IMG/VR virus record: IMGVR_UViG_3300034159_000059
Origin: a virus
Length of the DNA stretch: 64,000 nucleotides
Direction: 5' to 3' (one strand)
Position 1 is the stretch's first letter, and every line of letters starts with the position of its first letter. This document shows, piece by piece, positions 15,387 through 64,000 of this stretch. The position numbers and the translations under genes are program-made. The notes under the pieces are model-generated. The model did no database searches, was not told the origin of the DNA, and saw only the letters and a list, made by a program, of their open reading frames with translations.

Positions 15387-15599
15387 ATGGCGCTACGAGG
15401 TACAGTGAAGTGGTTCAACGATGCAAAGGGCTACGGGTTCATCAAGCCTGACGATGGGGGGAAGGACATCTTTGTCCACCACTCCGTCATCAAGATGGAT
15501 GGGTTCCGCACTCTCTCTGAAGGGGAGCGCGTCGAGTACACCATCGAGGCCGGGGCGAAGGGCCCGCAGGCCGTAAACGTCTCTCGCATCTCAGAGTAG
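15387..15599 (+). CDS. cspA: Cold-shock protein (CspA family, S1-like cold-shock domain)
   Basis: [35 protein letters not shown]…[20 protein letters not shown]: canonical CSD with RNP1 (KGYGFI) and RNP2 (VFVHH) motifs. Confidence 0.9.
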
Positions 15600-15614
15600 T
15601 GCTCAAGACAAGGG

Positions 15615-15658
15615 AAGGCCGCGCTCCCGGGGGGAAGAAGCGCGGCCTTCTTGTCGCC
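15615..15658. terminator. Hairpin terminator at the convergent boundary
   Basis: GAAGGCCGCGC-15 nt loop-GCGCGGCCTTC followed by TTGTCGCCC. Confidence 0.6.
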
Positions 15659-15680
15659 CTCCTGCCTCGTGGGGGGAGGG

Positions 15681-40265: not shown

Positions 40266-40306
40266 AGAAGGTCGGGCTTCCACACCCGACCTTCTTCCCT
40301 TTTAGG
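40266..40306 (+). terminator. Rho-independent terminator closing the + island
   Basis: AGAAGGTCGGG-cttccacac-CCCGACCTTCT followed by TCCCTTTTAGG; overlaps the terminase stop. Confidence 0.7.
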
Positions 40307-45556: not shown

Positions 45557-46420
45557 TCAGTTCTTGAGCCCGTCCTTCTCCTGCTCATCCTGCATGCCTC
45601 CGGAGAAGTTGCCGAGCGGAGCGAGAGTGTTGATGTCCGGTGGTGGCTTCTGCGGGTGTTCCATCCGGAAACGCTCGAAGTTCTTGAGCACGTCCTTGAG
45701 GGCCATGTCGCTGGTGGAGAGAGCCTCGTGACACTCGACGACGGCCTTCGCAAGCACGGCGATGGCCTTCACCTTGTCAGCGCCGGTACCAGGCTTGAGG
45801 TTCACTTCTTCTAGGGTGTAGTGAGCGATCTCCTGTGCGCGTTGGATCATCACCTTAGACTCAACAGCTTGCGCGATGCGAAGGTGGTAGAGAGCAAGGC
45901 GGGCATCGCCTTGCAGAAGAGACATGTAACGCTCATAGAGCGCGGCTCGCCCGAAGAGGAAGCGTCCCCAGTCGTCGAAGGTGAGTAGCTGGGGATTCCA
46001 AAAGTAGTGGCGGAAGGTCTTCACGCCCTCTTCGGAAAGGAACCAGGTGTACTGCTTGTTGATGCGCTGGCAGGTCACCTTGATGTCGAGGCGGGAGAGG
46101 ATCATCTGCTCTACCACCAGCCGTTGGTCAGGCATGGAGAGGATGTTCCACGCCTCCTGCATCTCAGGAGAGTTGCGGAAGATCTCGTAGATACCGAGGT
46201 TCCGCAAGTAACGCATCGACGGTCGATGCGTGGTGTCGAGGGGATCGAAGTCCTCTGGCGCCGGCGGAAGGCTCGCCTTCAAGAAGACGAAGTAGTTCTT
46301 CTCGTAGCTTGGAGGAAGAAGGCAGCCCCAGTCCTGGAGATGCTTCTCGATGGCCGCCTGATCCCAGTCAGGGTGCCGGATGATGAGGAACTTGATGAAG
46401 TACTCAGCAGGATGTCTCAC
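45557..46420 (-). CDS. Hypothetical protein
   Basis: 287-aa ORF. Confidence 0.5.
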   Translation of the reverse strand: MRHPAEYFIKFLIIRHPDWDQAAIEKHLQDWGCLLPPSYEKNYFVFLKASLPPAPEDFDPLDTTHRPSMRYLRNLGIYEIFRNSPEMQEAWNILSMPDQRLVVEQMILSRLDIKVTCQRINKQYTWFLSEEGVKTFRHYFWNPQLLTFDDWGRFLFGRAALYERYMSLLQGDARLALYHLRIAQAVESKVMIQRAQEIAHYTLEEVNLKPGTGADKVKAIAVLAKAVVECHEALSTSDMALKDVLKNFERFRMEHPQKPPPDINTLAPLGNFSGGMQDEQEKDGLKN

Positions 46421-46422: not shown

Positions 46423-48930
46423 TCAGGCCTCAGCGTGCTGAACGGCGCGGAGGGATTGGATGACCTCTTCCATGTTCTTCATCGTCCTCTCCACTGCCTC
46501 TTCAGGCACCGCCCTCTCTCCGACGTATCCCGAGAGAAGCATCTCGGCGAGTTGCTCGCTTGTCTGCTCCAGGCTGGGAATGAAGTCGATGAAGGTCGAG
46601 AGGTTCTCGGGGTTGACGAAGTTCAGAGCGAGCACCTTGTCGACCGTTGATTCATCCTGAAGCGTCGCGGCCTCCTTGATGAGATCGCGACGAAGGTTCG
46701 GGATCAGCGAAGCGAAGGCGGATGCGGTCTTCTTCTTTTCTTCGTAGAGCTCCGCCAGTGTGGTGATGTCCTTCAGGTTGGAAAGCTTCACCACACCATT
46801 CCGACGAGCGACAGAGAGCTTCTCCTTGATGGAAGAGCCATCGACGCCGAGCAGACCGAGCATGAACTCCGCAGAGACGGGGTCGAGGTCGTAGCGGTAC
46901 TTGGCCGCGATCTTCGCCAGCCCACAGCCTCCTTCGAGGTTGAACGAGCCGTTCCAGAAGAGGTCGACGGAGTGGGCCGCTGCCCGAGCCGCACTCGTCT
47001 TGTTCATCTCCTCCGCACTTCCGAGGAGCTGAGTCTGGCCATTCAAGGCCATGAACTTCCAGGAGGCCGGTACGGCGAATTCGCCATCAGCGATCTGTTG
47101 AGGCTGCACGAGCTCTGGGGAGAGATGCACCGTGACCTGATTCCCCATGAAGTCGACGCAGGTGTACATTTCCCCGCCATCGGGACCTGTCATGCCTCCT
47201 CGCACTGTCACAGGAGCAGTCGCACGGGCACCATCTCTCGTGACTTCGTAGAAGACTCCCTCACCGCGAGGGGCGGAGACTGGGAGCGTCATGCTCTTGC
47301 CGACGAGTTCTCCGACAACGGCGTCCTGGACAGAGAAGGCTGAGCCGTTTGTGAAGAGAGCCACTGGCGTTTCAGAGAAGCTCCCATCCCAGGCCAGTGT
47401 GGTAGGGAAGACCCATCCCAGTATCTGGTTCCCCATCTTGTCCTGAACCAGATACTCCCCGAACTCTTGAATGGCGTCAGCATTCGGCTCCTCGGGAGAG
47501 AGAACCTCTTCCGGGATCGGATCGGCCACTGCGGAGAGCGTCTGACCAGGCTGCATCGCCTGCGCCTGATCGGGACCGATGGCCTCTGCCGCCTCTTCTT
47601 GAGGAACCACCTGCCCTTGTGCCTCCTGGCCTGGAGCGAAAGCGTTTACGTTGGCGCTCTTCACGAGGAAGTTGCCACCGGGAAGCTTCTGGAAGGTGAT
47701 GACCGTCGGATCGATGCTCTCCGCGATGGCGAGCAACCGCTCCTCTACTGAGGCCCTCTTCGTCTTGTCGAAAACTTCGACGAGGAGGTCGGTCACCCCT
47801 GCTCTCTGAAGCCCGGCGCGCAGCGTCGCATCAGAGGCCACCTTCTGCACGAAGGCTTCCGCATCCTTCTCGCGGATGGTCGGAGCGATGGCGCGAAGAA
47901 GGGAGACAGAGGCCTTCTTCTGCTGACCTCCGCCCAGCATCTTCGTCCCCTCCGACATCATCTTCTGGCCCTTATCGAACTGCTTCTGCTGCGTCTTCTG
48001 CTGCTTCTCGACGAGCTTTCTCTTGTACTCCTCGATCTTGCCAGGAGGCGGCGGCTCCGGCTTTGGGTGGTAGCCGTAGATCTTGGTGGCCATCTCGTAG
48101 ACCCGGTTCTGAACTGCCGGGTGATCGCGGCCACCGTACTCCTGCACCATCTTCTGGATGTCGAGAGAGTCGTAGATCGCGTTCCACTGCTCCTTGGAGA
48201 TGTGCTTGAAGGAGACCTTCTCCTTGGTCGTCTTCTGGAGCGTCGCGAAAAGCTGCTCTTCTGGAGACGCGCTCGACAAGACCATCTTCGCAGCCGCGAG
48301 CCCTTGGGGGCCCTTATTGACCATCTTGAAGCCGATCGCCTTGGCCCGCGCCACTCGCGAGGGGTCTTTCGATCCCAGGTTCTTGATCGCGGTCTTGGCA
48401 GCGTAGGCGAAAGGCATCGACTCCTTCTGCACCGATGCGGTCTTGTAGTCGCCACCCATGCCGATGCCGGAACGGTGCGGCGGCATGAGAGGCTCGACCA
48501 AGGACGGATCCTGGGGCGGCGAGACAGAGAGGTCGAAGGTGCTGGGGTTGAAGAGCTGCTCCCTCACCCGCTCTTCGTTGAGCGGAAGGACTCGCTCGCC
48601 GTCGAGGAAGGTGCTGAAGGGACGGACCGACCGCTCCTGCACCACAAGGGGGACCCGAATGTGAGGCAGCCCGGCCTCGTCATGCTCAGCGTCGGGGCGC
48701 TCCGTCTTGTTGTGGATGTCGGCGTACCCGAAGGCGTAGCCGCGTTCCGGGTCGACTCGATCCAAGTTGACGTTGACGTCGTAGTCGGAGAGGTAGGGAA
48801 GCTGCTTGTAGAGATCGCTCGTCAGCTCCTGTGGCCAGTTCTCCGGCTTCTCCGAGAGACGGCCGGCGTATGCAGACGTCTTCTGAAGCTGGTCCTGCTT
48901 TGGGAGGTTGTCCTTGTAGAGGGAGCGCAT
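46423..48930 (-). CDS. Large hypothetical virion protein (835 aa)
   Basis: Long ORF between the spike-like gene and smaller virion genes. Confidence 0.55.
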   Translation of the reverse strand: MRSLYKDNLPKQDQLQKTSAYAGRLSEKPENWPQELTSDLYKQLPYLSDYDVNVNLDRVDPERGYAFGYADIHNKTERPDAEHDEAGLPHIRVPLVVQERSVRPFSTFLDGERVLPLNEERVREQLFNPSTFDLSVSPPQDPSLVEPLMPPHRSGIGMGGDYKTASVQKESMPFAYAAKTAIKNLGSKDPSRVARAKAIGFKMVNKGPQGLAAAKMVLSSASPEEQLFATLQKTTKEKVSFKHISKEQWNAIYDSLDIQKMVQEYGGRDHPAVQNRVYEMATKIYGYHPKPEPPPPGKIEEYKRKLVEKQQKTQQKQFDKGQKMMSEGTKMLGGGQQKKASVSLLRAIAPTIREKDAEAFVQKVASDATLRAGLQRAGVTDLLVEVFDKTKRASVEERLLAIAESIDPTVITFQKLPGGNFLVKSANVNAFAPGQEAQGQVVPQEEAAEAIGPDQAQAMQPGQTLSAVADPIPEEVLSPEEPNADAIQEFGEYLVQDKMGNQILGWVFPTTLAWDGSFSETPVALFTNGSAFSVQDAVVGELVGKSMTLPVSAPRGEGVFYEVTRDGARATAPVTVRGGMTGPDGGEMYTCVDFMGNQVTVHLSPELVQPQQIADGEFAVPASWKFMALNGQTQLLGSAEEMNKTSAARAAAHSVDLFWNGSFNLEGGCGLAKIAAKYRYDLDPVSAEFMLGLLGVDGSSIKEKLSVARRNGVVKLSNLKDITTLAELYEEKKKTASAFASLIPNLRRDLIKEAATLQDESTVDKVLALNFVNPENLSTFIDFIPSLEQTSEQLAEMLLSGYVGERAVPEEAVERTMKNMEEVIQSLRAVQHAEA

Positions 48931-48939: not shown

Positions 48940-50013
48940 CTACGATCCGAAGAGAGTCGTCGACACCGGAAGGTTGTTGGAAGGCGGAGCCGGGGGTCCG
49001 GTCGGTGATCCAGGCCCGATGACTGGGTGTACGTGCGTGAGCAACCAAGTAAGGAAGGCAGGATCCGCCAGAAGAACAGGGAACGTCCCCTCCCCTACCA
49101 CAAGCATAGGGCCAGCAGTCACCTGGCCTCCTGCGAGGAGGGAAAGGGTCGTTCCTGCTTTGACGCTCGCCGCTGCATCTGCCTGGACGTCAACTGTCCT
49201 TCCTTGAATGCTGGCTGCGAGAGAAGAGGAGACTGAAACATTCCCTTGAGCCGCGAGAGAGAAGTTCCCTCTCACGCTCCAGTCTACATTCCCTTCGCAA
49301 GACCAGGATACCGAGCCATCCTTCTGAAACTCCAAGCTGATCTTCGTCGCCGCCCCTGTCTTCCCCGAGGCGTTGATGACGAGAGACAGGATATTCTGGG
49401 AGCTGTCTGAGTGGGAACCGATTTCAAGAACTGCGACGTAGTCAGGGTCGTCTGCAAACTGCTTCGCGCGCAGTTTCAGCGTTGCTGGGCGAGCTCCGTC
49501 CGTCGTGTTCTCAGAGCGCTGAATGCTCCAATCCAAATCCCCACCCAACGTATTCAGAGTGTAGTTCTCGCAGAAGTCTCTGATGGCATTGTTGATTGGG
49601 ATGAACATCCTCTGAGAAAGAGGACCTCCTCCGATCTGCACGACCCCACCCCGGCGCAAGATGAGGAAGTTCTCATCTCTCGTCCCTAGGTAGATGTCTC
49701 CTGGATTGAGACCCATCTTCTTGGAGCGCAGAGAGTCGTTCTCGTCTCGGGCAGGAGCCCAAGCCAAGACGAACGGCTTGGAGCCGTCAGAGGGGAAGCA
49801 GATCCAACACAGACTCCCTACCTCCGGCATGAAGTAGATGCCTTCGCCGTTTGCGTGGTGCTGGTAGGGTGTCGCGAACCCAAGGCCGGACAGTGGTTTC
49901 TTGGTGAACTGCGTGACAGCGGAGACCGAGTAGGCCTCGACATCGACGTCGATGATCTGACCAGACTCGACGTAGGCCGGAACGGTTCGGATCTGAGAGG
50001 CGGCTATGGCCAT
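48940..50013 (-). CDS. Putative baseplate/central spike-like protein
   Basis: EVGSLCWICFPSDGSKPFVLAW (gpV-like OB-fold region) and a C-terminal HVHPVIGPGSPTGPP tip-like motif; its ATG immediately follows the RNAP stop (TAAATG). Confidence 0.4.
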   Translation of the reverse strand: MAIAASQIRTVPAYVESGQIIDVDVEAYSVSAVTQFTKKPLSGLGFATPYQHHANGEGIYFMPEVGSLCWICFPSDGSKPFVLAWAPARDENDSLRSKKMGLNPGDIYLGTRDENFLILRRGGVVQIGGGPLSQRMFIPINNAIRDFCENYTLNTLGGDLDWSIQRSENTTDGARPATLKLRAKQFADDPDYVAVLEIGSHSDSSQNILSLVINASGKTGAATKISLEFQKDGSVSWSCEGNVDWSVRGNFSLAAQGNVSVSSSLAASIQGRTVDVQADAAASVKAGTTLSLLAGGQVTAGPMLVVGEGTFPVLLADPAFLTWLLTHVHPVIGPGSPTGPPAPPSNNLPVSTTLFGS

Positions 50014-53000
50014 TTAGTAGGCGAACGGCTTCTTGCGAGTGACTTCCTTCGGAGGAGCCCCGAACTCCTTGCCGTAGGCGATTCCAGGAATGGGGTGAGC
50101 GCCGTGGATGTCGCTCTTCCACGCCTGACTGGCCCCTCGCTGAAGGGTCTGCTTGAGGCGCTGGTAGTTGAGGCGAGCCATCCAGTCGGTAGACTGGTTG
50201 GGGATGTTTCCAGAGCCAGGAAGCATGGGCTCGTGTGTGATTGGCTGCTCGTGCGTCTTGCCTTTGTTGTTGCGGTTGAACTCCTCCACCAAGGAGTGCG
50301 GAACTACGTCTCCTGGATCCCACTGAGAGCTGCCAGGGTCCTTGATCCGAGTGTAGTTGGTGAGGCTTCGAACCACGAGCTCGATGTTACGTGGCCGGAC
50401 GTTTTCGTCCTTGTAGAGCTTCCTGTAGAGCTCGTCGACCAGGTGGCGCTGCACCCCATGCATGTCCTTGGTGATGTGGAGGAGCTCCTTCGGGTGAATC
50501 GGAGCCATCTCATGAGACAAGCTCTCGCCTCGACGCACCTCCGCTCCAACCACAAGAGCAGGGTTGATTTCTCCTTCTCGAATGTGGTGGTCGATCCCGT
50601 TGATGGTAACGACGTGGCCACCAAGACCGGGGTCTGGCTTGATGCCTGTGACGGTTCCTGTGGTCTTGGCAAGAATGGCTGACCCCTTCAAGATCTTCGG
50701 CATCTTGAGTAGGTCCTTCAGTCGTTGAATCCTGGAGACGGAACCACCTCCACGGCCCGACGCGATACCTCCGGTGTGGAAGGCATCCATGGCGAGCTGA
50801 GTCGCGGGCTCGCCCAAAGCTTGTCCAGCGAGGACGCCGATGTTGGTCCCCACCGGATGGAGCTTCCCATTCTCATTGAGGCCGAAACACTTAGAGCAGA
50901 CACCTTCTCCGTGCTGGCACTTGAGAGGGGAGCGGACTTGGATCTTGGCGTCCTTCCCAAGAACCTGACGCAGGCGATCTACGAGAGCAGGAGTGACCTG
51001 TTCCCCCGCCTTGAAAGGCCCGTGGTCCTTGGCCAAGAACCGATCGTAGACGTCGAGATGGTAGGGATCCTTGGGGTCGAGAGGCATCAGGATGCCGTGC
51101 TGCGTTCCACAGTCCTCGCTCGTGATGAGCGTCGAGATTGTGGAGTTGATGATGTCCTTCGTCATCGCGCCAGGCTCTCTCGTACCGCTGGCGCGCTGGA
51201 GAGTTCCCTTGCGGGCGCCGTGCTGGGCGAGCCAGTAGTCTCCGACGTCGAGCCCCTCTCCGTAGGACCTGGTGATGGGGAAGGGAACCACGCGGCCCGT
51301 AGAATCCTGCACAAGCATCGGGGCTGCGATCATCTGTCGAAGCTGCTCTGGTTTTCCACGCGCACCGGAGTAGACCATGGCGCCGAGGTGGCTACCTTCT
51401 TTTGGCAGCCGCACTCTCGCTGCGGCGTCGAGCTTCTCCGTTGCCTTGGAGAAGATCTCCACCAGCTTCGCCTCCCTCTCCCATGAATGAAGAGACGGGT
51501 CGATCTTTGCTGCTTGATGCTGCGCCTCCGCTACGATCTGGTCGCGCTCAGGCAGAGGAGCAAAGTCCTTCAGACTGAGAGAGAACCCGTGCTTGAAGGA
51601 CTGCTCAGTACCCAGATCCTTCAGGTTGTTCACCACCTTGTCGAACTCTCCAGGATGCTTCTTGGCGAGCTCGGTGACAATGGAGCCCATTGGCTTCTTG
51701 GAGATCTCGAACTCGGGGTCGTAAAGCACTTGCCCCCGCATCGCGAAATCCCGAGGAAGGCGGGATTCGATCCGTAGACGGCCAAGCGTAGTAGGCCGGT
51801 TCCCGACTTGTTCGACTCGGACTACATCTGTGTGAGTCAGGAGTCCTTTGTCGACCAGGTCTGAGAGCTCATCGACGGTCTTCACGGTCTTGCCGGAATC
51901 CTTACCCCATTTGGAGATGAGGTGAAGGCCGAGCAGGAACTCCTGGGAAGGGATGTGCATCGCGCCGTAGGTCGTGGGAGAGAAGAGGTTCCGTGAAGGG
52001 AACATCTTCTTCGCCTCTTCCACCGCTTCTTGGGAAATAGGGACGGTGCCCGCCATCGTATCGCCGTCGAAGTCGGCGTTGAAGCCGCCACAGACCAGCG
52101 GGTGGATCTTGATGGCCTTGCCTTCCACCGTCTTGGGGCGGAACGCTTGAACCGAGAACTTGTGCAGAGCCGGATCTCTTTTGAGAAGAAGGGGTCGATC
52201 CTTCATCACCTCGTCGAGAGCCTTCTTGGCATGATCCGACTGTGCCTTCATCTCGGACATAGCTTGAGAAGGCGTGTATCCGTAGCGCGAGTGCATATGC
52301 GCCACGACGAAGGGCTTGTAGAGCTCCATCGCGGCCACACGGGGAAGCCCGATCTCGTCGATGTGAAGGGAAGGTTCAGGGACGATGGTGGACCGAATTG
52401 ACAGGTCCTGCTTCCGCTTGACGAGCTTCTCTTGGAAGTACCCCTCCTTCGGCTGATCTCCACCGATGAGGTCCACAATACCCTTCAGCTCTCGGTTGTC
52501 GAAGCTCTCCTTGTCGTAGATGGGTGTGTAGTCTCCGACAGCCTGTAGAGCCTTCATGCTGTTCCAGAGCTCGCCGCGGAGCTCGTGGACCATCTCATGC
52601 CCATACTTCTCCGCAGGCATGACCTTCATCTTCTCATTCACAAGACCCACGGTCTTGTAGAGGTCGTTGAGAGAGCTCTTCGCCACATCACCGCGTGCCG
52701 TGGGAGTCACTGGACGGAAAGCAGCCGGCAGGACCGGGATGTTTTGAAGCACGTAGGCCTCGTGCGGCTTCATGTCGAGGTCCTTCAGTGCCAGAAGGTA
52801 CTTGAGCGTGCGGTTGCTCTGGTCGCGCTTCGAGCCTCTCTTCGTAGGAAGCTCCTCCCGCAGCTTCTTGATCTCCTCTTCGACGTTGACGCTCTTCAGA
52901 GCGTCTGCGATGGCTCGACCCCCCACCTTCCCGTCGAGGGTGCTCTGCCCTGACATGATCTTGTCCACTTCCTGGACGGAGATGTCGCCATGCTTGAGGG

Positions 53001-56000
53001 AGAGAAGAGACGGGATGGGGCCCTTGTTCTGCTTGTCTCCGACAAAGAGCGGATTCGGCACCGGCTCATGGAGCTTGATGTAGCTCCACTTCTCGCCGCG
53101 GGACCCGACGATAGCAGGATCGAACAGACCGCCCTTCTCAGGCTTGAAACCCTTGGAGGTGAAGAGCAGAGGTTTGCGGATCTCGTTCTTACCGTTGTCA
53201 GCGATCTTCAGGACCTCGCGATCCGTCATAGGCACCAGCCGCATCGAGGTGCCTTCCTTGCGAACATCAACGCCGAGGCCGCGAAGCAGTCCTTCGAATT
53301 TGGTGTATGCGAAGGGGATCTTCGGAGGAGGCGGCTCTCGTCCTTCTTGAATCATCCGCCAGAAGTCGACGCCCTGCATGTCTGCTTTGTAGGTCGTCAT
53401 CTCCCGAAGGTTGTGACGCGCGTTGTGTCCGAGGAGAGAGTAGAGCTCAAGGGAGCCGAAACCCTGGCCACCAGAAGCCCCGCCCTTCACTGGCTGCATG
53501 TCCTGATCGTATTTGTACGGGCGATCGGAGAGGTCCGAACCTCCTCCGCGCACTACCAGCTTCTTCTCGACCTGGTGCTTCAGCTTGAGAAGGTGTTGAG
53601 GGCCGACGAGGATCTTGCCCAGAGGGCGTCGACGATCAGATGGGTCGAAGACTTCCTCTTCGTCAGACAAGCCATGCTTCGCAAGCTCGTCCACCACCTG
53701 CTTGCGATAGTCGTGTCCTGATCCAGCGAAGTTGTTCACGAAGAAGGGGGAGCCGGTCTTCTCTGCCACTTTACCGGCAGCAGTCTCCAAGACCTGCCCG
53801 ATGTTCATACGAGTAGGCACGCCTGATGGGTTCAGGAGCACATCAAGAGGACGGTCTGTCCCATCCGGCTTCTTCACGAAGGGCATCTCGTGGTCCGGAA
53901 GGATCTTGGTGATGATGCCCTTGTTGCCGTGGCGTCCGGAGAGCTTGTCGCCGATCTCAGCAGCTTCCTCGGTCTTCACGAAGACCTTCACGCTCTTGCC
54001 GTTCGGACTCTTCACAACTCGCGTGACGATGCCCGGGTAGTCACTGTCCCAGGTGAGAGACTTGTCCTTCCATGGCTTGATAGCCTTGTTGCCGAATCTC
54101 TCGACCATGATCTGACTCTTCACCTTGTTGGGAGTCAGACACGTAGCGAGAACCTGCCCGTTCGTTACCCTAGAGCCCTCCTTGATGACGCCATCGTCAT
54201 CCAACATGGAGAGCTTATCTTTCGAGTGGCTCGTCGCCTTGTGTGAGGCGTAGGACATCCACTTCTTCTTTGAAGTAACGTCCTCTTCCGGCGCCACATC
54301 CATCTTCAGCTTGTGCAAATGCTCGCTGGTGAGCTTCTGAGAAGCCGACTCAGAGATGACGATACCGTCTTCGAAGTTGTACCCTTTGTAGGGAATGTAG
54401 CCGACGTGGAGGTTCGTCCCTAGGGCCAGAGTGCCGTTTCGAGTGAAGTTCGAGTCGGCCACCACCTGCCCAGCCTTCACCTGGTCCCCGACCTTCACCA
54501 CCGGCTGGGAGTGCAGCATGGTAGTCGGATCATTCAGCGGGAAATGGTTGTAGAGCTGAACCTTGTGCTCAGTCTTGCCGTCGTGGACGTGGACCCCGTC
54601 CGCAGTGATCTTCGTCACCTTGCCATCCACAGGAGCTCTGTGGGCCGCGAAACTCGTGCCGATGAGCTTCTCGAAGGAGTGGGTTGGGTTGTCCGACCGC
54701 ACCAGGCTCTGCACGAGAGGGGCTTCACGGTTCTTCAGCGAGATGGCCTGTTCCATCTGCTTGTCGGCCATCGAAGCGCGGTTGCCTTGGTCGCAAGGAA
54801 GGAAGGGGATGAGGTTCGATGTGTAGCTGAACATCGCCTTCGCCGTTGGCATGAGGAAGTCTGCCTCATGGTAGGGGCGCCGACTGATGTCCCCACCAGG
54901 CAACTTCACCTTCACTTCTCTGGCGATGGGAACGTACTTGCCGTCGACCTTCTTCACCTGATCAGGCAGCACCACCATGGCCGTGTGGAACTCGGGAACA
55001 GTGACATCCTTGAGCTTCCCGGTCTTGAGATCCACGACGGTGGTGCTGAGGCTCCGACCCTCCTTGCGAACACCAGAACCGAGGTGGAGCGTGATGCCTG
55101 TACGCTCAGACTCTGGGGTATGCATCGGATCGAGGAAGGCGAAGTGAGAAGGGTTCACCCCCTGCATCTCCTCACCGACCTTCTCGGGGTCCTTGATACC
55201 ACCGTAGTCCTTGGCGATGACGGTAGTCTTGAAGTTCCCTGAGAGCATCTGTACTGGGTTCGTCTGCTCACTGCGTTCGGAGACGTTGCCGCCTTGGGTG
55301 AAGAATTCCTTGATGGGACGGTTGAAGAGATCTCCGCCCTGCATGATCTCGGAGATGACGTTCTTTCGTCCGATGGAGAGCAGGACCTTGTTCTTCACTC
55401 TCTTCTTGAAGTTGTTCTTGTCGAGCTTCTCTGGAATGAAGTCCTCGACGTGAACGACTTCCTTGAAGATCAGGCTGTCACGATCATCAGGCTCTACCTC
55501 GCGCCGCTCCAACTTGAGCAGCTTGTTCGATGCAGCGAGAAGAGCTCCTCCGGTCACCTTCTCGAACGGGTGCCCGAGTGTGGCTTTGGTGGTATCTGGG
55601 AAGAGCTGCGTATCGTCGAAGTAGCGGAAGATGTGCTCCCGCATCTCTTCCATGGACGGAGCTCGCCCGATGTCTGGCGGGGCGGTCTTCTCCCAGAACT
55701 TCCGAAGAGCTCGTTCCTCTGCCTCTGGCTGAGCGACCTTGTTGGCTTCGAAGACGGCTTTGCCCCAGGACTTCTCCATCTCGGCATCGTCTACTCCCAT
55801 CACCTTGAGAAGGGGGTATGCTGGGATCTTCGCATCCCCCGACTTGGTCTTGAAGTTGATGAGACTCTTCTTGCGATCGAGGAGTAGGTCGAAGTTCTTC
55901 GACCCGCCCTTGCGCAAGTTGAATTCAGAAACCAGGTCTCCGTTGCGCTTCACGCGCGTGTAGATGCCGGACTTGAGGCGAAGAAGGTGGTCGACTTGAT

Positions 56001-56325
56001 ACTCACCCCCGTCCACGATGAACGAGTAGCGAGAGGTGAGCTTGGGGACCCGAGCGAGTTGGATGGTCGACTTGGAGATGGGCTTGCCCGTGATGTTGTC
56101 GATCAGCTCCATCTCCGCCCGGATCGGCACACCCCAAGTCTGTTCGTTGTGCTTGGCTTGGAGCTGCGAAGCGACATCGTTCGGATCGAGAGTATCTTCC
56201 GCCCAGATTCTCTTGAGCGACAGAGTTCTCTGACTCGTCTGGATGGGGAAGATGCTGGAAATCTGCTGGATGACGCCATTGGTGAGGGTCGTCATCTTGT
56301 CGGCGGTCTTAGGCTCACCGGCCAC
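50014..56325 (-). CDS. rpoBC: Single-polypeptide bacterial-type multisubunit RNA polymerase: beta (RpoB-like) fused to beta' (RpoC-like), 2103 aa
   Basis: Beta signatures [12 protein letters not shown] and [22 protein letters not shown]…[17 protein letters not shown]; beta' catalytic motif [24 protein letters not shown]; the beta' N-terminal Zn-finger region appears absent; GTG start with GGAG RBS (alternative ATG at 56295). Confidence 0.9.
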   Translation of the reverse strand: [2103 protein letters not shown]

Positions 56326-56448
56326 GGGTGCTCCAGTTGCACCTCGCGCTGGGTGCTATATCTGTCAGCCCTCTCTCTGCGCGTCTAGAGGTCTTCGGGC
56401 CGTATCGACTCGATGCGAGGATACAAGCACGGCCCACAGCATGGCAAC

Positions 56449-56477
56449 GAAAAGGCTCGAAGATCCAAGGCATAAGA
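56449..56477 (+). promoter_or_regulatory. Candidate promoter: GAAAAG-N17-ATAAGA
   Basis: Third exact copy of the bipartite motif, at the head of the + island 56533-58213. Confidence 0.4.
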
Positions 56478-56766
56478 AGTTGCAGGAGAACTGGTAGGCA
56501 TCTCTTGCTTTTACTCCGACCAGAGAGTGGTGATGAGCACCAAGCCTAACTCTACCGAGTTCGAAGAAGAAGTCCTGAGCTCGCTGTATGGAGACGAAGA
56601 GGGCAGCGATGACGTAGACGAAGGGACCGACGAGAGGGAGGAAGAGGTATGGCAGGAATCTTCATAGGAGCGTTCGTGGTTGGAATGCTCAGCTACTTCG
56701 TGATGCGGTTCACGCAGGCTTTGCAGGAAGTCCAAGTGCAGCAGGGATGGGGCTACTGAGGGCACC

Positions 56767-57180
56767 ATGGATCGTCCGCCATTTTGCAAGATCCTCTTCG
56801 GGAAGAATGGAGGGAAGTTCACGGCGACAGGCTTGCCGGACTTCAACCGAGAGGACGAGGACGATTGGGTCCGTGGGTGCTGTACCCGAGCCTTCGACTG
56901 CGGAAGTTGTCTCTTCCTCCAGGAGTGGCTCGCAGCTCTTCAGGCGCAAGGATGGGAGTTCGGTTGGGAGTGTGATCAGTGTCTAAGAGAGACCCTCCCC
57001 CTCGATCGGCAGAACGGAGTGACCCGGTCTGTGCAGGGCTTTTATCAAGCCGGGCGACGTGCAGGTCTCACTCCCGACGATCCTGATTACGATCCAGACA
57101 TGCCAGGGCTCGAAGGTTGTACACGCAACTGTGGATGGGAGAGCAGTCTTCTACAACTCGTACTGAGGAAACGGCCATGA
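56767..57180 (+). CDS. Cys-rich hypothetical protein
   Basis: 137 aa with at least 10 Cys (CCTRAFDCGSC…WECDQC…CTRNC). Confidence 0.45.
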   Translation: MDRPPFCKILFGKNGGKFTATGLPDFNREDEDDWVRGCCTRAFDCGSCLFLQEWLAALQAQGWEFGWECDQCLRETLPLDRQNGVTRSVQGFYQAGRRAGLTPDDPDYDPDMPGLEGCTRNCGWESSLLQLVLRKRP

Positions 57181-57416
57181 GTGAAGCGGTTCTCGCAAGG
57201 AGCACGCAGTCGACTACGAAGAAGGTTGCTTGGTCCGAAGCCATGAAGATGGTGCAGGCCAAGATCAAGGACACGACGCAGCAGAAGGTGCTTCAAGCGA
57301 TGCTCTCGGGGACGTACCCCTCTGGCGACATCGCTCGGAAGCTGGGCATCCCTTGCCGCGAGGTGGAGCGCATCAAGGACGCCATCTGGAAGATGATCGA
57401 CGAGCTGGTGGGCTAG
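57177..57416 (+). CDS. Small protein with a sigma-70 region-4-like HTH
   Basis: …QKVLQAMLSGTYPSGDIARKLGIPCREVERIKDAIWKMIDELVG resembles sigma region 4.2/LuxR-type HTH; ATGA overlap with the upstream gene. Confidence 0.5.
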   Translation: MSEAVLARSTQSTTKKVAWSEAMKMVQAKIKDTTQQKVLQAMLSGTYPSGDIARKLGIPCREVERIKDAIWKMIDELVG

Positions 57417-57632
57417 GTGTCTTGCGCCCTTTGCGGAGGGCCGATCCTCAAGGGGCAGTGGTGGGCGCGCACTCAGGCCTTCGTCAACATCATCGACGCG
57501 CATGGGCAGGCAGTATCCGTCCCTGTTGTCTTGGAGGACGGAGCTTCTAACAAAGAGGCTCACTACGGCTGTCTTCTCAAACGCTGCCCAGAACTGATCG
57601 GTGTGAAATGGGGTGAGCCGAGAGAACCATGA
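57417..57632 (+). CDS. Cys-rich small protein
   Basis: GTG start; CALCGG…YGCLLKRC. Confidence 0.4.
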   Translation: MSCALCGGPILKGQWWARTQAFVNIIDAHGQAVSVPVVLEDGASNKEAHYGCLLKRCPELIGVKWGEPREP

Positions 57633-58213
57633 CCAACTTCTACAATCCAACACCTCAACAAGGAACCCCATCTCTCGGGCCCTACACCGAGCAACAAGCT
57701 CCGTTCCTTGAATGCTCGAACTGCGGTACTCCGATCACGGTGGGGCAGCGCTACACCATGGTATGCGAGTACCTGCTAGGAGTGGACCTAGCCACAGGGC
57801 AGCTTGTTCCAGTGGCTTGTGTCGACTTCGAGGAAAGTGTAGCGGTCCACTCCGCGTGCTCCGCAGAGTACGCCCACGATCAGATCACCAAAGAGCCCTG
57901 CGGAAAGGACGAGGAAGATGCGCAGAGTGATTGTCCCTTCTGCGGAGCGGAGGGATGCACCCATTGTAGGGAACGTCTTCGAGAAGTTGATGCGTCCTTG
58001 CTCAAGGAACCAGTGACTCGTTCAGACATCCTCGACCAAGAGGATATGATCGAGAACGCCGTAGGGGTTCAGAAGTTCCTCTTCGACCGGGTTCGGAACG
58101 GGCAGCCGGACACGGCTGTAACGAACGAGCTCTGGTACATCCATGAGCTTCTCAATCAAGCAGCCGAGAGGCTGTCGAACCTTCGAGCCGCAGGAGTGTT
58201 TCCAGACACGTAG
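57629..58213 (+). CDS. Cys-rich hypothetical protein (zinc-binding-like)
   Basis: ECSNCGT…DCPFCGAEGCTHC motifs; ATGA overlap. Confidence 0.5.
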   Translation: MTNFYNPTPQQGTPSLGPYTEQQAPFLECSNCGTPITVGQRYTMVCEYLLGVDLATGQLVPVACVDFEESVAVHSACSAEYAHDQITKEPCGKDEEDAQSDCPFCGAEGCTHCRERLREVDASLLKEPVTRSDILDQEDMIENAVGVQKFLFDRVRNGQPDTAVTNELWYIHELLNQAAERLSNLRAAGVFPDT

Positions 58214-58225
58214 ATGTGGCGAGGA

Positions 58226-58258
58226 GAAGCCGACGAAGTTCGTCGGCTTCTTTTTAGC
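58226..58258 (+). terminator. Rho-independent terminator
   Basis: GAAGCCGACG-aagtt-CGTCGGCTTC followed by TTTTTAGCC. Confidence 0.75.
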
Positions 58259-58262
58259 CTGT

Positions 58263-60368
58263 CTAGACGCCCGTCGAGGATGCCCGGCGAGTTGGGCGCT
58301 GCGTCGGTTGCGGAGTCTTGGCGTCGAGAGGGCTGGGTCCTCTGTTCTGGTTGATGATTTGGAGTACCAAATTCCCGAGCTGCGGATTCGACATCCGCAC
58401 CTTGTTGATCTCCATCATCATCGCGCTCTCGCCTTGCTCGTCTCCGACCTTCTTGATCTGGTTCGCTGCTCTCTTTGCCAGATAGAGAAGGTTGTAGCCG
58501 CCACCCTTCTGACCAAGCTGGAGCGGGCTGGACGCGGAGACAGGAACCCCATCCGTCGGCGCTTGCTGCGCGTTGTCTGGAGAGACCGTCGACCCTTCTG
58601 GCATTCCTGGAGCGGCTTGGGGACCTGGGACCATCTCCCCTTCCTGCCCAGACTGCTGACCTCCCATGCCCGGCATCCCAGGCATGCCTCCAGCCTGGGA
58701 TGGGTCTTGTCCCTCTCCCTGCGCGCCTGCCGGGCCGCCGGCACCTGCCTGAGCGTCGGCACCCGCTCCAGCGCCTGCCCCTTGCTGGCCACCCGCTCCC
58801 CCCGTCGCCTCCATGAGCTCCTGCTGCGCCTTTGCCTGATACCGGGTCTGGACCATCATCATCTCGCCCTGGATACCGGCTTGGGCGAGCTGCTGCTTCC
58901 GCATGACGTCGAGTTTGTGGTCCAGCTCCAGAGCCTTCCGCTCTTCCTCCACGGCGATGTCCTGGTCGACCTCGGATAGAAGCGTCTGGTCTGAGAGCTT
59001 GTCCGCCTGGTTGAGGGTGAACATGAAGTTGGAGCGCTGGAGATCGTCAGCCATCTTGAAGCGCTTCATGTGAGCCCGGACAATGGGCCACTGCATGAAG
59101 TTGGCGATTCGACGGATGACGAAGTTGTTGAGCATGTTCTCGTGGTCCTGACGGTACCCGATGAACATGTTCTCCAGCATTCGCATCGAAACGTTCGACC
59201 CCGAGTAGGTGAGGCCGCCGTAGACGAACTCTTGAGGAACGCCCATGCCGGCCACGATCTGTTTCGACCAGACGTCCATCTCTTGGTAGAGACCGAGGGC
59301 CTTCCCGTCCCCTCCAATGGACTCGTTCCCGATCGGCACAGGAAGGATGGGGAGGTAGTTGTTGTCGTACTTCCACTTGGCGATCTCTGCCTCGATACGC
59401 TGGCGCCAAGAGTTCAGGTCGAGAGTGGTGTACGGATCGCTGGTGTTTGAGCCTGCCTGGGGGAAGAGGATGCGCAGCGGGACGATGTGCTCCTGAGCGA
59501 TCGACTCCTGAGCCTTGCGAAGGATCTGGAGGTAGAAGGTGTCCTTCAGGACCGGCAGGATGAGAGGCATGCCCCAGCCGTTGTCCTTCTGGGAGATGAT
59601 GGGGCGCTTGAAGACGAAGATGTTGTCGTCGGTGAAGCGGATGTACTTGTTGCGCCGCAGAGCCTCGACGAAGATGTCAGGGACGGTGTCGAGAACGTTC
59701 TTCTTCCCCAGGATAAGATCGTTCTTGAGCTGAAGGGGGAGTTCGAAGGTGTAGATGGGGTCTGCGCCACCGAAGCCCGGGTCGATGTTGATGTACTCCG
59801 GATTCCACCGCATCAGGCGGATGCGCCGCAAATCTCGGTCGTACCAGTCCAAGACAGCAGCAGGACCCTCCCTCCCGCACTTGTCACAAGAGATGATGTA
59901 CTCCAAGTTACGCCACTTGTAGTGGATCTTGGAGGCCTTCTCCTTATGCTTGCAGCTCTTGCAGATGAGGTACTTGGTGAAGGGGAAGTGGATGGTGACG
60001 GCGCAAATGCCGTAGGTGTAGTAGTCGAGCCCAACCTCGATCTGGAATGCTCGGTACCGAAGATGCTGACCAAGCAGGATCTCCCACTTCTCACGGATCC
60101 GCTGATCCTTCTCGTCGATGACGATCTCGGTGACGGGGTACTCACTCATCTTGTGGATGACCACGTTGATGAGTGGGTTGACGAGATAGTAGTAGCGGCA
60201 CCACCTGAGCAGCGCCTTCATCGAAGGCGGCAGATATGTGTGCGCGATGTCGAAGAAGGGAGACGGGTAGCGAACACCACTGCGGTTCGTTCCGTCAGCG
60301 GTACGTCCGCGCTGTCCCGAGAACCGGGAAGCGCCTCCGTAACCGAGGGACAGGTTGTCGTAGCTCAT
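58263..60368 (-). CDS. Putative portal protein (701 aa) with a Gly/Ala/Gln/Pro-rich C-terminal tail
   Basis: Size and position are right for a portal; low-complexity C-terminus GAGAGADAQAGAGGPAGAQGEGQ…; no motif-level proof. Confidence 0.55.
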   Translation of the reverse strand: MSYDNLSLGYGGASRFSGQRGRTADGTNRSGVRYPSPFFDIAHTYLPPSMKALLRWCRYYYLVNPLINVVIHKMSEYPVTEIVIDEKDQRIREKWEILLGQHLRYRAFQIEVGLDYYTYGICAVTIHFPFTKYLICKSCKHKEKASKIHYKWRNLEYIISCDKCGREGPAAVLDWYDRDLRRIRLMRWNPEYINIDPGFGGADPIYTFELPLQLKNDLILGKKNVLDTVPDIFVEALRRNKYIRFTDDNIFVFKRPIISQKDNGWGMPLILPVLKDTFYLQILRKAQESIAQEHIVPLRILFPQAGSNTSDPYTTLDLNSWRQRIEAEIAKWKYDNNYLPILPVPIGNESIGGDGKALGLYQEMDVWSKQIVAGMGVPQEFVYGGLTYSGSNVSMRMLENMFIGYRQDHENMLNNFVIRRIANFMQWPIVRAHMKRFKMADDLQRSNFMFTLNQADKLSDQTLLSEVDQDIAVEEERKALELDHKLDVMRKQQLAQAGIQGEMMMVQTRYQAKAQQELMEATGGAGGQQGAGAGAGADAQAGAGGPAGAQGEGQDPSQAGGMPGMPGMGGQQSGQEGEMVPGPQAAPGMPEGSTVSPDNAQQAPTDGVPVSASSPLQLGQKGGGYNLLYLAKRAANQIKKVGDEQGESAMMMEINKVRMSNPQLGNLVLQIINQNRGPSPLDAKTPQPTQRPTRRASSTGV

Positions 60369-60374: not shown

Positions 60375-61106
60375 TTACCTCTGGCCCTGGAGCGGAACAG
60401 CAGGAATCGTTTTACGTCCCCTCATGCGATCTGCTGCTGCTCCGGCAAGGTCCCCGAGCTTCCCTCCGATCAGAGAAGCTGAGACACCTCCGGCGAAGCC
60501 GAACGGGGCTCCGATGATGCCACCAGCCTGATCCCCTACAAGCTTGGCCGCTCTGCGAAGTCGGCTATGCCCTTGCCCCGAAGGATCTTGGCTCTTCATC
60601 ACATCACGAGCCCCGGTCGCTAGACCGTAGCCCATAAGTGCTTTCCACCCAAAACCCAGAGGCTTCCCTCCTGGACGGAAAGTGGCCTGCATCCCTTGCT
60701 GGAAGCTCTTTTGAGGGGTAAGGAAAGCGGCGGCGGCTTGTCCCATCTGACCAGCAGCGGTGGCTCCATAACTGGCAGCCCCTTGAGCTCCTCGCTGGGC
60801 CACGTTGCCGATGTAGCCGCCTACATCGCGCAAAAAAGAGATCTTCTTCAGGCCTTCCCGCGCCTTCTTCTTGTTGGCCTTCCCCCAAGACCGAAGCTCC
60901 AATCTCTTCGAAAGCTTTGGAGTGACGCTCTTCGCAGCCTTGCGCCCTACAGCATGTGCGTTGACACGGTTGTGCAGGTACGTCTGCGCGTCCCGGGACA
61001 GGTTCGTCCCTCGTATCTGAAGCATCTTCTTGGAGATGCCGGAAATCTTCTCTAGCTCATCAAGGAACGCAGGGAGGGAGTCTCTGATCACGTGGCCCCC
61101 AGCCAA
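60375..61106 (-). CDS. Gly/Ala-rich hypothetical virion protein with N-terminal PAFLDELEKIS motif
   Basis: 243-aa ORF. Confidence 0.5.
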   Translation of the reverse strand: MAGGHVIRDSLPAFLDELEKISGISKKMLQIRGTNLSRDAQTYLHNRVNAHAVGRKAAKSVTPKLSKRLELRSWGKANKKKAREGLKKISFLRDVGGYIGNVAQRGAQGAASYGATAAGQMGQAAAAFLTPQKSFQQGMQATFRPGGKPLGFGWKALMGYGLATGARDVMKSQDPSGQGHSRLRRAAKLVGDQAGGIIGAPFGFAGGVSASLIGGKLGDLAGAAADRMRGRKTIPAVPLQGQR

Positions 61107-62026
61107 CTCTTCAGAGTCGTGAGCTGTTCGGCAAGCTGCTTGCGGCGAATGTTCATGTAGTCGCGCGCCAGAAGTAGCTTGGAGACCTGCATGTCTTCCA
61201 TACTCTCTTCGTCGGGATGGAACTCGACGAAGGGGAGCTTCTCTACTTCCTTCCAGCGCTTGACGATGGGAGTCGGGTCGAACTTGACGATGAGATCGAG
61301 GTTCTTCCCCTTACCAGCATTCACCAGCTCTTGTCTTGGCTGAAGAGAGAGGCCTTGCAACGGATGTAGGCGATCCGTGCAGTTCGAGCAGAATCCGTCA
61401 TGGAAGAGAGCAGACTCTTCGTTGCCACAATCCTGGCAGCGGTAGTGGGGCTGGGAGAGTTCGAGCTGCATGAAGTCCAGAGGAGGCGGCACGTAAAAGA
61501 CGTTCTCTTCCAGCACAGTTGCTGCCATGTAGAGACGAACCTCGTCGCTGAACTTCTCACGACGAAGGAAGTCTAGGGCATCGACTGCCCCGTACAGCTC
61601 TTCCAGAGAGAGCATCTGCATGATGCGGAAGTTCGGAAGATGGTTGCCGTTCAAGGCATGCGCCACCTTCTCGAAGATCTGCCAGCGGGTCCATGGACCG
61701 GTGGAGGAGTGCAGAGCTTGGAGTGCGCGGATCTTCTGCCAACAGATCTCCGAGACGCCGGTAGAGAACTCTTGAGAGATCTCTTCGCGAACCGTCTCAG
61801 GCTCCCACCGATACCAGTCAGACCCGAAGGCTCGTAGGAGAGAGAAGTCGAGGACGACGGGGTGGGTGTTGGGACGGATGAACAGGTTCCGAAGCGTGAC
61901 CGGTTGAGAATAGTCTTGAGTCGGAGCCACGACGCGCTCCTCCGGACTACCCTCGGTCGGAGCGGTCGGCTTGACCTCGTCCAAGGAACGAAGCTTCTCG
62001 AAAAGGGTGTCTTCAGGAGTCGGCAT
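61088..62026 (-). CDS. Hypothetical protein (312 aa; CxxC…CxxC pair)
   Basis: YRCQDCGNEESALFHDGFCSNC. Confidence 0.5.
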   Translation of the reverse strand: MPTPEDTLFEKLRSLDEVKPTAPTEGSPEERVVAPTQDYSQPVTLRNLFIRPNTHPVVLDFSLLRAFGSDWYRWEPETVREEISQEFSTGVSEICWQKIRALQALHSSTGPWTRWQIFEKVAHALNGNHLPNFRIMQMLSLEELYGAVDALDFLRREKFSDEVRLYMAATVLEENVFYVPPPLDFMQLELSQPHYRCQDCGNEESALFHDGFCSNCTDRLHPLQGLSLQPRQELVNAGKGKNLDLIVKFDPTPIVKRWKEVEKLPFVEFHPDEESMEDMQVSKLLLARDYMNIRRKQLAEQLTTLKSWLGAT

Positions 62027-62561: not shown

Positions 62562-62906
62562 CTACTCTACGCTGGTAATGGCTCTCCCGTACCCTCTTCC
62601 TGCTGCTGCCACGCGATCCGCGTCGGCCGCGGCCTTGGCGCCCGACGGCTTGCGCATATTCGCCTGTAGTTTCGCGAGCATGGACGACTCTGGCGACAGC
62701 TTCTTGACTGGAGGGGACGGACGCGAGGCGCGCGATGCAGAGAGAAGGGAAGAAGACTTCCGGGGAGGGATGACGATCCCCTTGGCCGCGCGGAGGTTCT
62801 GGTGCTCCGTTACGAGCTGCTTCGCGATGGGACTTTTGAGGAGAGCGCCCGTGAAGGCGATCTTCTGGAGTTCATCGAAGAAGCCGCTGAGGGTCTGGGA
62901 GTTCAT
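62562..62906 (-). CDS. Hypothetical basic protein with N-terminal GFFDELQKIA motif
   Basis: 114-aa ORF. Confidence 0.45.
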   Translation of the reverse strand: MNSQTLSGFFDELQKIAFTGALLKSPIAKQLVTEHQNLRAAKGIVIPPRKSSSLLSASRASRPSPPVKKLSPESSMLAKLQANMRKPSGAKAAADADRVAAAGRGYGRAITSVE

Positions 62907-64000
62907 GAATTCTTCGCCATCCTCGCGATCACCTGTTTCGTGTCGGCTGGCATGGAATTGAAAATGGTGACGGGGTCGATGGAGAAGGCTTCCGCGAAGT
63001 CCGGCTGGAAGTTCCTCTCGATCTCTTCCCGAGGAATGGTATGGAGCTGCCGATAGGTGACGGAAGTGCCGTCTGGAAGCTCAAAGCACGGAGTGTCGCT
63101 TGACGCCGCCGTCTTCTCCGACTCTTCGTTCTTGCCGAAAGTGGCGAAGTAGGGGTCGCACACAACACCACCCCACTCGTAATTGAGCCCACAGAGCTCA
63201 TCCGCCTCGCGCAGAAGCTGGGCGAACGTCTCTGGCTCCATCATGGCTCTCTTCTCTTGGAGGTCGTCCCAGACGGCCTTGAAATCAGGAGCCATGGTTC
63301 GACGATTGGCGAGATGGGCCTCGACATCAGGTGCGTACTCGGTAGAGCCGTACCGAGCCATCGTGTCTGGGACGGTGACGCCGAGAGCGTCTGCTCTCAC
63401 GCTGGCCGTCTTGGCGAACTCGTGGCGATCTTGAGGAGGCAGAGTAGGCCAGTTCTCTTCGAAGAACTGAATCGCCCTCTGCACGTCGGAGTAGCTGTCG
63501 AGGGCGTATTGGCCGTTCAGAGCGGTATACGAGGCCTTCTTGACCTTCACCACTGGTCGAGCATACTCGGTGGCGACGTCGACCTGGTTGGCGACCTTTT
63601 TGAAGGGTTTCACTTTTTCAGGAGGAATGGCTCGGCTGTCGTCCGTGAGGATGACGCCTCCGTCTGGAGGCTTGGCTCCAGCGGTCTTCATCTGGTTGGC
63701 CGTTGGGATGACGCGGCCAGAGTCCGCTCCTCCTCGGACCGAGATCAGGTTTGTTCGCTGCGCCCAGTCTGCTTCGTCGCCGACGAACGGCTGGTTGCGG
63801 GAGTCCCTTGTCCTGGACAAGGCGCCTGCACCTTTCGAGGAGGCAGCGGAGACCTTCGAGTGCTGCATGATGTCAGAGAGTCGGTTCAGGACCCTCCCAC
63901 CCTTGGACTGTTCGCGACGAACGTAGCCTTTGGAAGCGGTCTGGGGCTCAGGGGCGAACGCCTGCTTCAGCTTCTCTGGGACAGGAAGCCCGAACTCTTC
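62903..64000 (-). CDS. Hypothetical protein whose 5' end may be truncated by the window edge
   Basis: ORF track starts at Met 63868, but the frame stays open upstream to position 64000 (…EEFGLPVPEKLKQAFAPEPQTASKGYVRREQSKGGRVLNRLSDIM…). Confidence 0.5.
   Translation of the reverse strand, partial: EEFGLPVPEKLKQAFAPEPQTASKGYVRREQSKGGRVLNRLSDIMQHSKVSAASSKGAGALSRTRDSRNQPFVGDEADWAQRTNLISVRGGADSGRVIPTANQMKTAGAKPPDGGVILTDDSRAIPPEKVKPFKKVANQVDVATEYARPVVKVKKASYTALNGQYALDSYSDVQRAIQFFEENWPTLPPQDRHEFAKTASVRADALGVTVPDTMARYGSTEYAPDVEAHLANRRTMAPDFKAVWDDLQEKRAMMEPETFAQLLREADELCGLNYEWGGVVCDPYFATFGKNEESEKTAASSDTPCFELPDGTSVTYRQLHTIPREEIERNFQPDFAEAFSIDPVTIFNSMPADTKQVIARMAKNS

Follow-up and report, generated by a model that had tools for sequence, protein, structure and literature searches.

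In the current study, we analysed a stretch of 64,000 nucleotides (hereafter the window) from virus record IMGVR_UViG_3300034159_000059, an uncultured tailed phage of ~209 kb, and detected in it a gene (50014–56325, minus strand) that joins the RNA polymerase (RNAP) subunits beta and beta' in one chain of 2103 amino acids (aa). As judged from its sequence, this gene encodes a genuine and conserved single-chain beta-beta' RNAP of the bacterial type with all catalytic determinants, in a phage genome in which it lies between the portal and spike genes. The predicted enzyme is shared by hundreds of metagenomic phages, and its position among virion genes, together with virion mass spectrometry of a cultured relative, suggests that it may be carried in the phage particle.

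Architecture of the fused polymerase

The open reading frame (ORF) runs for 2103 codons without an internal stop, and the predicted product has a mass of 233 kDa and an isoelectric point of 9.2. The start codon is GTG, with GGAG 5 nt before it, and an alternative ATG at codon 11 leaves the start uncertain by ~10 codons. A non-coding leader of ~185 nt (56326–56510, minus strand) precedes the gene and is presumed to be its promoter region. Pfam detected Rpb2_6 (aa 575–929, E 1e-63) followed by Rpb1_1, Rpb1_2 (E 6e-27), Rpb1_3, Rpb1_4 and Rpb1_5, which is the cellular order, while the best solved-structure matches were bacterial beta' chains (E ~3e-111); together, ~1700 aa are covered by strong beta or beta' matches in Pfam and the PDB. 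The initial annotation of the window had described one 2103-aa gene with rpoB signatures in its first half and rpoC signatures in its second half, and both points are borne out, as the frame is uninterrupted, the beta domains precede the beta' domains and every quoted motif is present.

The beta-like module (aa 1–1024; 53254–56325, on the minus strand like all parts of the gene given below) comprises the lobes and protrusion, the fork, the beta double-psi beta-barrel, the flap and a complete beta C-terminus, as delimited by phmmer and by AlphaFold combined with Foldseek. Against E. coli beta, phmmer aligned residues 266–765, 777–859 and 893–1024 with 429–926, 1048–1126 and 1213–1340, respectively, so that the module is alignable from E. 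coli position 429 to the very C-terminus at 1340. The insertions SI1 and SI2 (beta 932–1038) and part of the beta 1170–1224 region are absent. The first 264 aa were barely alignable to E. coli beta by hmmalign or phmmer. An AlphaFold model of aa 1–600 reached pLDDT values of 80–95 over aa 10–340, and Foldseek retrieved with it only bacterial beta chains (best E 1e-23, probability 1.00), which indicates that the lobes are present but reduced; the TM score of this model is low because its domains are mis-oriented. The active-site motif GRHGNKG (aa 797–803; 53917–53937) is invariant in all of the 42 aligned family members on which the residue-conservation counts of this study are based. Its K802 corresponds to E. 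coli K1073, and K794, just upstream, to K1065. The equivalents of beta R678, E813, D814, K1065, K1073 and R1106 show little or no variation. Relative to E. coli, ~6 residues are missing from the flap-tip region.

The C-terminus of beta is joined to the N-terminus of beta' (TSMRLVPMT...) directly and without a linker (53224–53280), as located by pairwise alignment to the corresponding E. coli termini. This junction is conserved across the fused family, with G1018, K1023, G1025 and P1032 invariant in the 42 sequences. The beta'-like module that follows (aa 1025–2103; 50017–53253) contains, according to phmmer and hmmalign, the clamp, the catalytic double-psi beta-barrel, the bridge helix, a trigger loop without SI3 and the C-terminal region, and its residues 1047–1074, 1120–1875 and 1865–2023 were aligned by phmmer with E. 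coli beta' 36–63, 166–960 and 1137–1295. The catalytic motif NADFDGD (aa 1416–1422; 52060–52080), with the Mg2+-binding Asp triad, is invariant (42/42), and the equivalents of beta' N458, D460, D462, D464, R425 and H936 are invariant or nearly so. Residues 1645–1864, which hold the bridge helix and trigger loop, align with beta' 720–950, and the trigger-loop residues H936 and M932 have conserved equivalents in H1850 and M1846.

It had been noted from the sequence that the N-terminal Zn-finger of beta' appeared to be missing and that the protein was about 650 aa shorter than beta plus beta'. Alignment supports the former, since a 33-residue deletion (site at 53080–53118, equivalent to E. coli ~64–96) takes all four Cys of the beta' Zn-binding domain (ZBD; Zn1 site, E. 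coli C70/C72/C85/C88) in 42 of 42 members, and the difference in length is 646 aa relative to the 1342 + 1407 residues of E. coli. The second zinc site of beta' (C1739/C1803/C1810/C1813, equivalent to E. coli C814/C888/C895/C898; 50887–51111) is kept and invariant in the 42 sequences. The further description of the enzyme as compact and minimal is overstated, because ~400 of the 646 missing residues lie in insertions specific to the E. coli lineage (SI1, SI2, SI3 and the beta 1170–1224 region), which many bacteria also lack; the predicted protein is trimmed rather than minimal.

In the equivalent of rifampicin cluster I (55216–55287), the pocket residues are replaced (Q513 by E/R, F514 by R/N, H526 by A/G/N/S, R529 by K/A/S and S531 by T, as aligned by hmmalign), and further replacements are found at the pocket positions I572 (T) and R687 (E/T). 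By analogy with known resistance positions, the fused RNAP is probably insensitive to rifampicin. Overall, its conserved residues and domains point to a catalytically competent, DNA-dependent RNAP of the cellular type with two double-psi beta-barrels.

Distribution and phylogeny of the fused family

This 2103-aa protein is listed in the databases for a Joint Genome Institute contig of 209,442 bp. The Logan assembly of SRR10968273 shows 0 mismatches to the window in a 12.9-kb overlap that includes the first 5238 nt of the RNAP ORF, and its RNAP is likewise 2103 aa long, with 1 substitution relative to the window protein. A database search with the fused RNAP returned at least 120 protein clusters at 46–100% identity, on contigs of up to 165–220 kb; among the best 120 clusters, 96 have a length of 2070–2135 aa and 22 exceed this length and include intein or homing-endonuclease domains. 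The single frame is retained in more than 100 full-length relatives at 46–78% identity. A scan of IMG/VR found 502 stretches encoding RNAP relatives, and at the 67 family-level loci analysed the gene is one uninterrupted frame of 2020–2210 codons in ~48 cases and one longer frame with in-frame inserts (inteins) in ~8. Searched at near-identity on the DNA level against cultured phages, positions 44–64 kb of the window gave no match. The fused-RNAP clade is a large group of uncultured tailed phages of ~165–220 kb. The view that such a fusion is unusual in a phage holds relative to the literature, but not for metagenomes, where it is common.

In many relatives, in-frame inserts with intein, LAGLIDADG or Hom_end domains enlarge the RNAP to 2390–3596 aa; these include proteins P0009, P0013, P0034, P0083 and P0093 and loci L023, L034, L042, L053, L059, L065, L066 and L092. 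A homing endonuclease is also found inside the RNAP region of Vibrio phages D181 and D148. Besides, in two loci (L047 and L071, both at 10001–15991) one tblastn high-scoring segment pair spans the whole RNAP despite in-frame stop codons, which suggests that a stop codon may be reassigned in these phages.

To place the family, we built a neighbour-joining tree of 160 taxa over 786 columns, with 74 bacterial representatives of many phyla and 60 bootstraps, a method in which long-branch attraction is possible. All phage RNAPs formed one clade apart from the 74 bacterial sequences, and within it the fused RNAPs formed one clade with those of the type of Salmonella phage Arash, both groupings being recovered in 60 of 60 bootstraps. 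The sister of the latter clade is a group with separate, adjacent genes for beta (~900 aa) and beta' (~1010 aa). The Arash-type split forms were nested within the fused forms, and for this reason the split looks derived, although the nesting is weak (33/60 bootstraps). The identity of the fused RNAP to bacterial enzymes is uniform over all phyla sampled (27–30% over ~1500 aa), which argues against a recent capture from a host. In the catalytic barrel, identity amounts to ~40% with bacterial beta' versus 25–29% with phiKZ-type subunits.

Gene neighbourhood and proposed role of the polymerase

The RNAP gene is part of a conserved one-strand gene order, which runs from the gene at 62903 through the gene at 61088, portal, RNAP, spike, a gene for 835 aa and a gene for 287 aa on to the large terminase subunit (TerL), and is found in 28–55 related loci. 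The stop of the RNAP gene directly abuts the start of the next gene (TAC TAA ATG GCC), as the initial annotation had pointed out in calling this neighbour a spike-like virion gene. The reading of the sequence is correct, and the neighbour (48940–50013, minus strand; downstream in 40 loci) is a central baseplate spike of the gp5/VgrG type, because its family matches Phage_base_V (6 members), Gp5_trimer_C, Gp5_C and DUF2345. It is followed on the same strand by genes for a conserved 835-aa protein (46423–48930; 44 related loci) with neither a Pfam nor a PHROG match and for a conserved 287-aa helical protein (45557–46420; 29 loci), which is not sigma-like (hhalign against a sigma profile, probability 0.2%). 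Upstream, also on the minus strand, lie the portal gene (58263–60368; PHROG portal match; 55 loci), whose product is 30.6% identical to Arash portal gp204 (E 1e-72), and the gene for a conserved 312-aa protein (61088–62026; 39 loci) with only weak Pfam matches (Zn-ribbon signals). The gene at the right edge (ORF 62903–63868) is actually longer, at 469 aa. TerL (40302–42188, minus strand; 36 loci) matches PHROG 675 (E 9e-62), Pfam GpA_ATPase and Arash TerL (E 8e-55). The major capsid protein (30856–32037, minus strand) is 28.8% identical to Arash gp226 (E 6e-34), and a PHROG major-head-protein match occurs in the same ORF set. A tail sheath gene is also present in the window, while helicase, UDG, DnaB and primase genes lie beyond its right edge and many small ORFs beyond its left edge.

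Between portal and RNAP (56550–58262), 4–5 small genes were called on the opposite strand (one of 194 aa with weak Zn-ribbon signals, one of 137 aa, and others); the related loci do not share this cassette, which occurs in only 1 of them. About 60 of the 72 window ORFs lack a Pfam match. Among the few that have one are two genes on the plus strand: the product of 1764–2447 matches PF26211 (Phage_phiTE_072), and 6545–7429, among the early-like genes, encodes a GGDEF diguanylate cyclase (E 3e-35), which suggests that the phage manipulates the cyclic di-GMP signalling of its host.

The only cultured phages with a related RNAP are Salmonella phage Arash (181 kb) and Vibrio phages D69, D148 and D181 (187 kb), at 29–32% identity over the whole length. 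They share with the window the beta-beta' junction and a portal gene just upstream of the RNAP, and Arash has portal, TerL, the major capsid protein and several structural genes in common with it. In these phages, however, the RNAP is split after the catalytic barrel of beta' into parts of ~1525 aa (beta plus the N-terminal part of beta') and ~606 aa (the C-terminal part of beta') with genes between them, whereas the window RNAP is one ORF. Each complete cultured relative has one RNAP set (tblastn gave two places in Arash, gp206 and gp216, and one in the Vibrio phages). According to the Arash paper, the larger part, gp206, gave 3516 spectra in purified virions, the most of any protein, while the smaller part, gp216, gave 1210 and the sigma factor gp10 gave 467 (PMC10585845). 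From its gene position and from these data on the Arash orthologue, the fused RNAP is probably packaged in the virion as well.

Jumbo phages of the phiKZ/AR9 type package one RNAP set and inject it, which results in host-independent, rifampicin-resistant transcription (PMC7598289, PMC13282480), and we adopted them as the functional model. We consider it fairly likely, on balance, that the fused gene encodes a catalytically competent single-chain phage RNAP that is packaged in the virion and starts transcription without the host polymerase. The RNAP gene would be expressed together with the morphogenesis genes (portal, spike, terminase), and the enzyme would be packaged in the capsid, ejected with the DNA and used to transcribe the first phage genes without host RNAP, probably in a rifampicin-insensitive manner. 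Later transcription would be carried out by newly made fused enzyme, because the complete cultured relatives have a single set of RNAP genes. A 1:1 stoichiometry would be ensured by the covalent fusion, which would also make the alpha-dimer assembly platform unnecessary, and promoter specificity would be conferred by a phage-encoded factor, in some relatives a sigma70-family protein. Pfam identifies Arash gp10 and gp196 as true members of the sigma70 family, and in L040, L041 and L070 a gp196-like gene of this family is found ~6 kb upstream of a fully fused RNAP gene. An IMG/VR scan for gp196-like sigma factors with two peptide patterns found, among RNAP-bearing contigs, only these three.

Several observations weigh against this reading. 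Pfam searches of the 71 window ORFs (64 of 209 kb) gave neither alpha nor omega nor sigma, nor was such a domain seen in the flanks, and a search for homologues of the Arash sigma factors with phmmer and a hidden Markov model, in the six-frame translated window plus both flanks (~84 of 209 kb), was negative. Similarly, gp196-like sigma factors were undetected on large fused-family contigs, in a scan limited to two peptide patterns. Adjacency to structural genes does not prove packaging. Arash itself is a distant guide, since its RNAP shares only 32% identity and is built differently, as a split enzyme. Besides, the list of 88 'structural' proteins of its virions includes ribonucleotide reductase and RNA ligases, and its authors allow for a carry-over of abundant enzymes (PMC10585845).

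The promoter signals around the gene were also investigated. Lax Pfam searches of the RNAP neighbours gave no sigma, alpha or omega. Scans for sigma70-type promoters and intrinsic terminators around the RNAP gene remained at chance level, including one sigma70-like match in the 185-nt leader; no common motif was seen by eye upstream of the late genes, and the window as a whole contained no more copies of the motif TTAGCTNTTCAC than chance would give. In the small-ORF (early-like) region, 2.6 kb of intergenic sequence carries the hexamer ATAAGA 7 times, against 0 occurrences in 16 kb of coding sequence (Fisher p = 1e-6), an enrichment absent window-wide. The sites are at ~1300, 5468, 7461, 7618 and 8231 (plus strand) and, to the left of the window, at 5562 and 9568 of L008; 6 of the 7 lie 49–58 nt upstream of the next start codon, and a hairpin, a T-run and 'TTAGC' precede several of them by ~37–41 nt. 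ATAAGA is a candidate for a phage-specific promoter element, unlike the sigma70 consensus. Only tentatively can these elements be combined in a wider proposal, in which a self-sufficient, capsid-borne single-chain RNAP would pass into the host along with the DNA, fold and work without alpha and omega, be immune to rifampicin and serve a phage promoter class, with ATAAGA as candidate element, through a phage factor or intrinsically, and in which the fusion would be an adaptation to survive ejection and ancestral to the Arash-type split.

Other explanations differ in how the enzyme would be used. It could be an active phage RNAP that is made during infection for middle and late transcription and stays unpackaged, its location among morphogenesis genes being historical. 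This would agree with the very inclusive Arash virion proteome, which counts metabolic enzymes among its 88 proteins (PMC10585845), and with the RNAP gene having its own upstream region of ~185 nt and being cut off from the portal by opposite-strand genes. We nevertheless find it rather unlikely. If the RNAP were produced only along with the late genes, whatever is expressed before it would be out of its reach, and the phage would depend on host RNAP early on; the Arash orthologue ranks first among the virion proteins and is no trace (PMC10585845); and the portal-RNAP-spike order is conserved in 40–55 loci.

A hybrid holoenzyme, in which the phage beta-beta' replaces host beta and beta' and assembles with host alpha2, omega and/or sigma, thereby redirecting the host machinery, seems improbable. 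It would explain why the catalytic barrel is closer to bacterial beta' than to phiKZ-type subunits, why the clamp-helix region, flap and beta' C-terminal region are alignable to E. coli, and why a phage sigma was not found in the ~84 kb of window and flanks. On the other hand, the ZBD is deleted and the flap tip shortened, the near-equal distance to all bacterial phyla sampled argues against co-adaptation to the subunits of one host, and relatives of the fused RNAP have sigma factors of their own. That the gene is an artefact or host DNA, i.e., an rpoB-rpoC operon misassembled or masked by a frameshift, or contaminating chromosomal DNA with a bacterial rpoBC fusion, has a negligible probability. 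Bacterial rpoBC fusions do exist (Helicobacter and Wolinella, PMC9696931; L097), and a few fused-family contigs have been binned into bacterial metagenome-assembled genomes (MAGs). However, the second assembly is identical over the 12.9-kb overlap, the more than 100 relatives keep the frame, portal, spike, TerL and major capsid protein genes flank the RNAP, all phage RNAPs stand apart from the bacterial sequences in the tree, and the MAG-binned contigs show the same phage neighbours. The frameshift and host contamination that the initial annotation had named as refuting cases are excluded by the independent assembly, the full-length relatives and the conserved phage synteny, and we reject this explanation. 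These considerations leave a virion-packaged, host-independent RNAP as the reading that we prefer.

Comparison with known RNA polymerases

The fused proteins are already present in public databases, where they are annotated as beta', and the proteins of the mReC sister clade and of Arash have been published. In the literature searched, of which the coverage is incomplete, so that absence is no proof, we found no description of a full beta-beta' fusion in phages. The fused form is unmentioned in the 2020 and 2026 jumbo-phage reviews, in a 2021 comparative genomics paper and in the mReC paper (PMC7481178), and the consulted sections of the Arash paper label 'beta' and 'beta'' subunits without mentioning a fusion (PMC10585845).

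A one-gene RNAP is a tractable object for biochemistry and cryo-electron microscopy, as it comes in hundreds of variants and, although devoid of the ZBD and the lineage insertions, still has lobes, flap, clamp, bridge helix and trigger loop. To our knowledge, work on phage-encoded RNAPs of the cellular type has been nearly confined to phiKZ/AR9-like jumbo phages, whose enzymes consist of 4–5 pieces and are hard to reconstitute. The fused enzyme offers tests of whether tethered beta and beta' can dispense with alpha and omega, of how a 233-kDa enzyme is packaged and ejected, and of promoter recognition without a ZBD. A single-gene, probably rifampicin-insensitive RNAP of the bacterial type is also a possible orthogonal transcription module. 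Moreover, separate genes (mReC), full fusion and re-splitting (Arash) may represent an evolutionary series relevant to the debated age of viral RNAPs.

The separate-gene sister group in our tree corresponds to mReC (Weinheimer & Aylward 2020, PMC7481178), as loci L084 and L085 are found in its supplementary table. Like the fused family, mReC are uncultured tailed phages whose beta and beta' are recognised by cellular profiles and form a deep clade outside Bacteria (PMC7481178). The mReC entries consulted consist of two separate proteins (beta ~900–1390 aa, beta' ~1000–1520 aa), in contrast to the single ORF of the window, and mReC capsid and terminase families are T4-like (PF07068, PF03237), whereas the window TerL is GpA-like (GpA_ATPase). 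Some mReC contigs, e.g., 3300017989_Ga0180432_10000070 (L084), carry two different beta/beta' pairs (PMC7481178), which recalls the two phiKZ sets, virion and non-virion. In a limited test, there was no sign of a second RNAP set in the fused family. It had also been stated that known phage multisubunit RNAPs are split into fragments, which is incomplete, as in mReC beta and beta' are each encoded whole by a gene of their own, and the Arash-like phages have a fusion of beta with the N-terminal part of beta'.

The RNAPs of the phiKZ/AR9 type are likewise phage-encoded, homologous to bacterial beta and beta' and without alpha or omega (PMC7598289, PMC13282480). They differ from the single ORF of the window in being made of 4–5 polypeptides in two paralogous sets, in having no canonical sigma and in being more divergent. 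The RpoB-RpoC fusions of Helicobacter and Wolinella also place beta and beta' head to tail in one polypeptide (PMC9696931). These bacterial enzymes are chromosomal and housekeeping, keep the ZBD, work with alpha, omega and host sigma and, unlike the phage fusion, branch inside Bacteria; the phage fusion arose independently of them. A further bacterial beta-beta' fusion, besides those named in PMC9696931, was encountered in a bacterial MAG (L097 3660–11189; 2510 codons), where it clusters with a Dependentiae-like (Vermiphilus) sequence inside Bacteria. Finally, YonO, the crAss-like gp62/gp66 and the P23-45 virion RNAP fused to a tape measure protein are also single chains with both barrels, some of them delivered by the virion (PMC10770324, PMC7481178). 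Those RNAPs are too divergent to be recognised by the beta and beta' profiles (PMC7481178) and are devoid of most cellular accessory domains, whereas the window RNAP matches Rpb2_6 at E 1e-63 and has retained lobes, flap, clamp, bridge helix and trigger loop.

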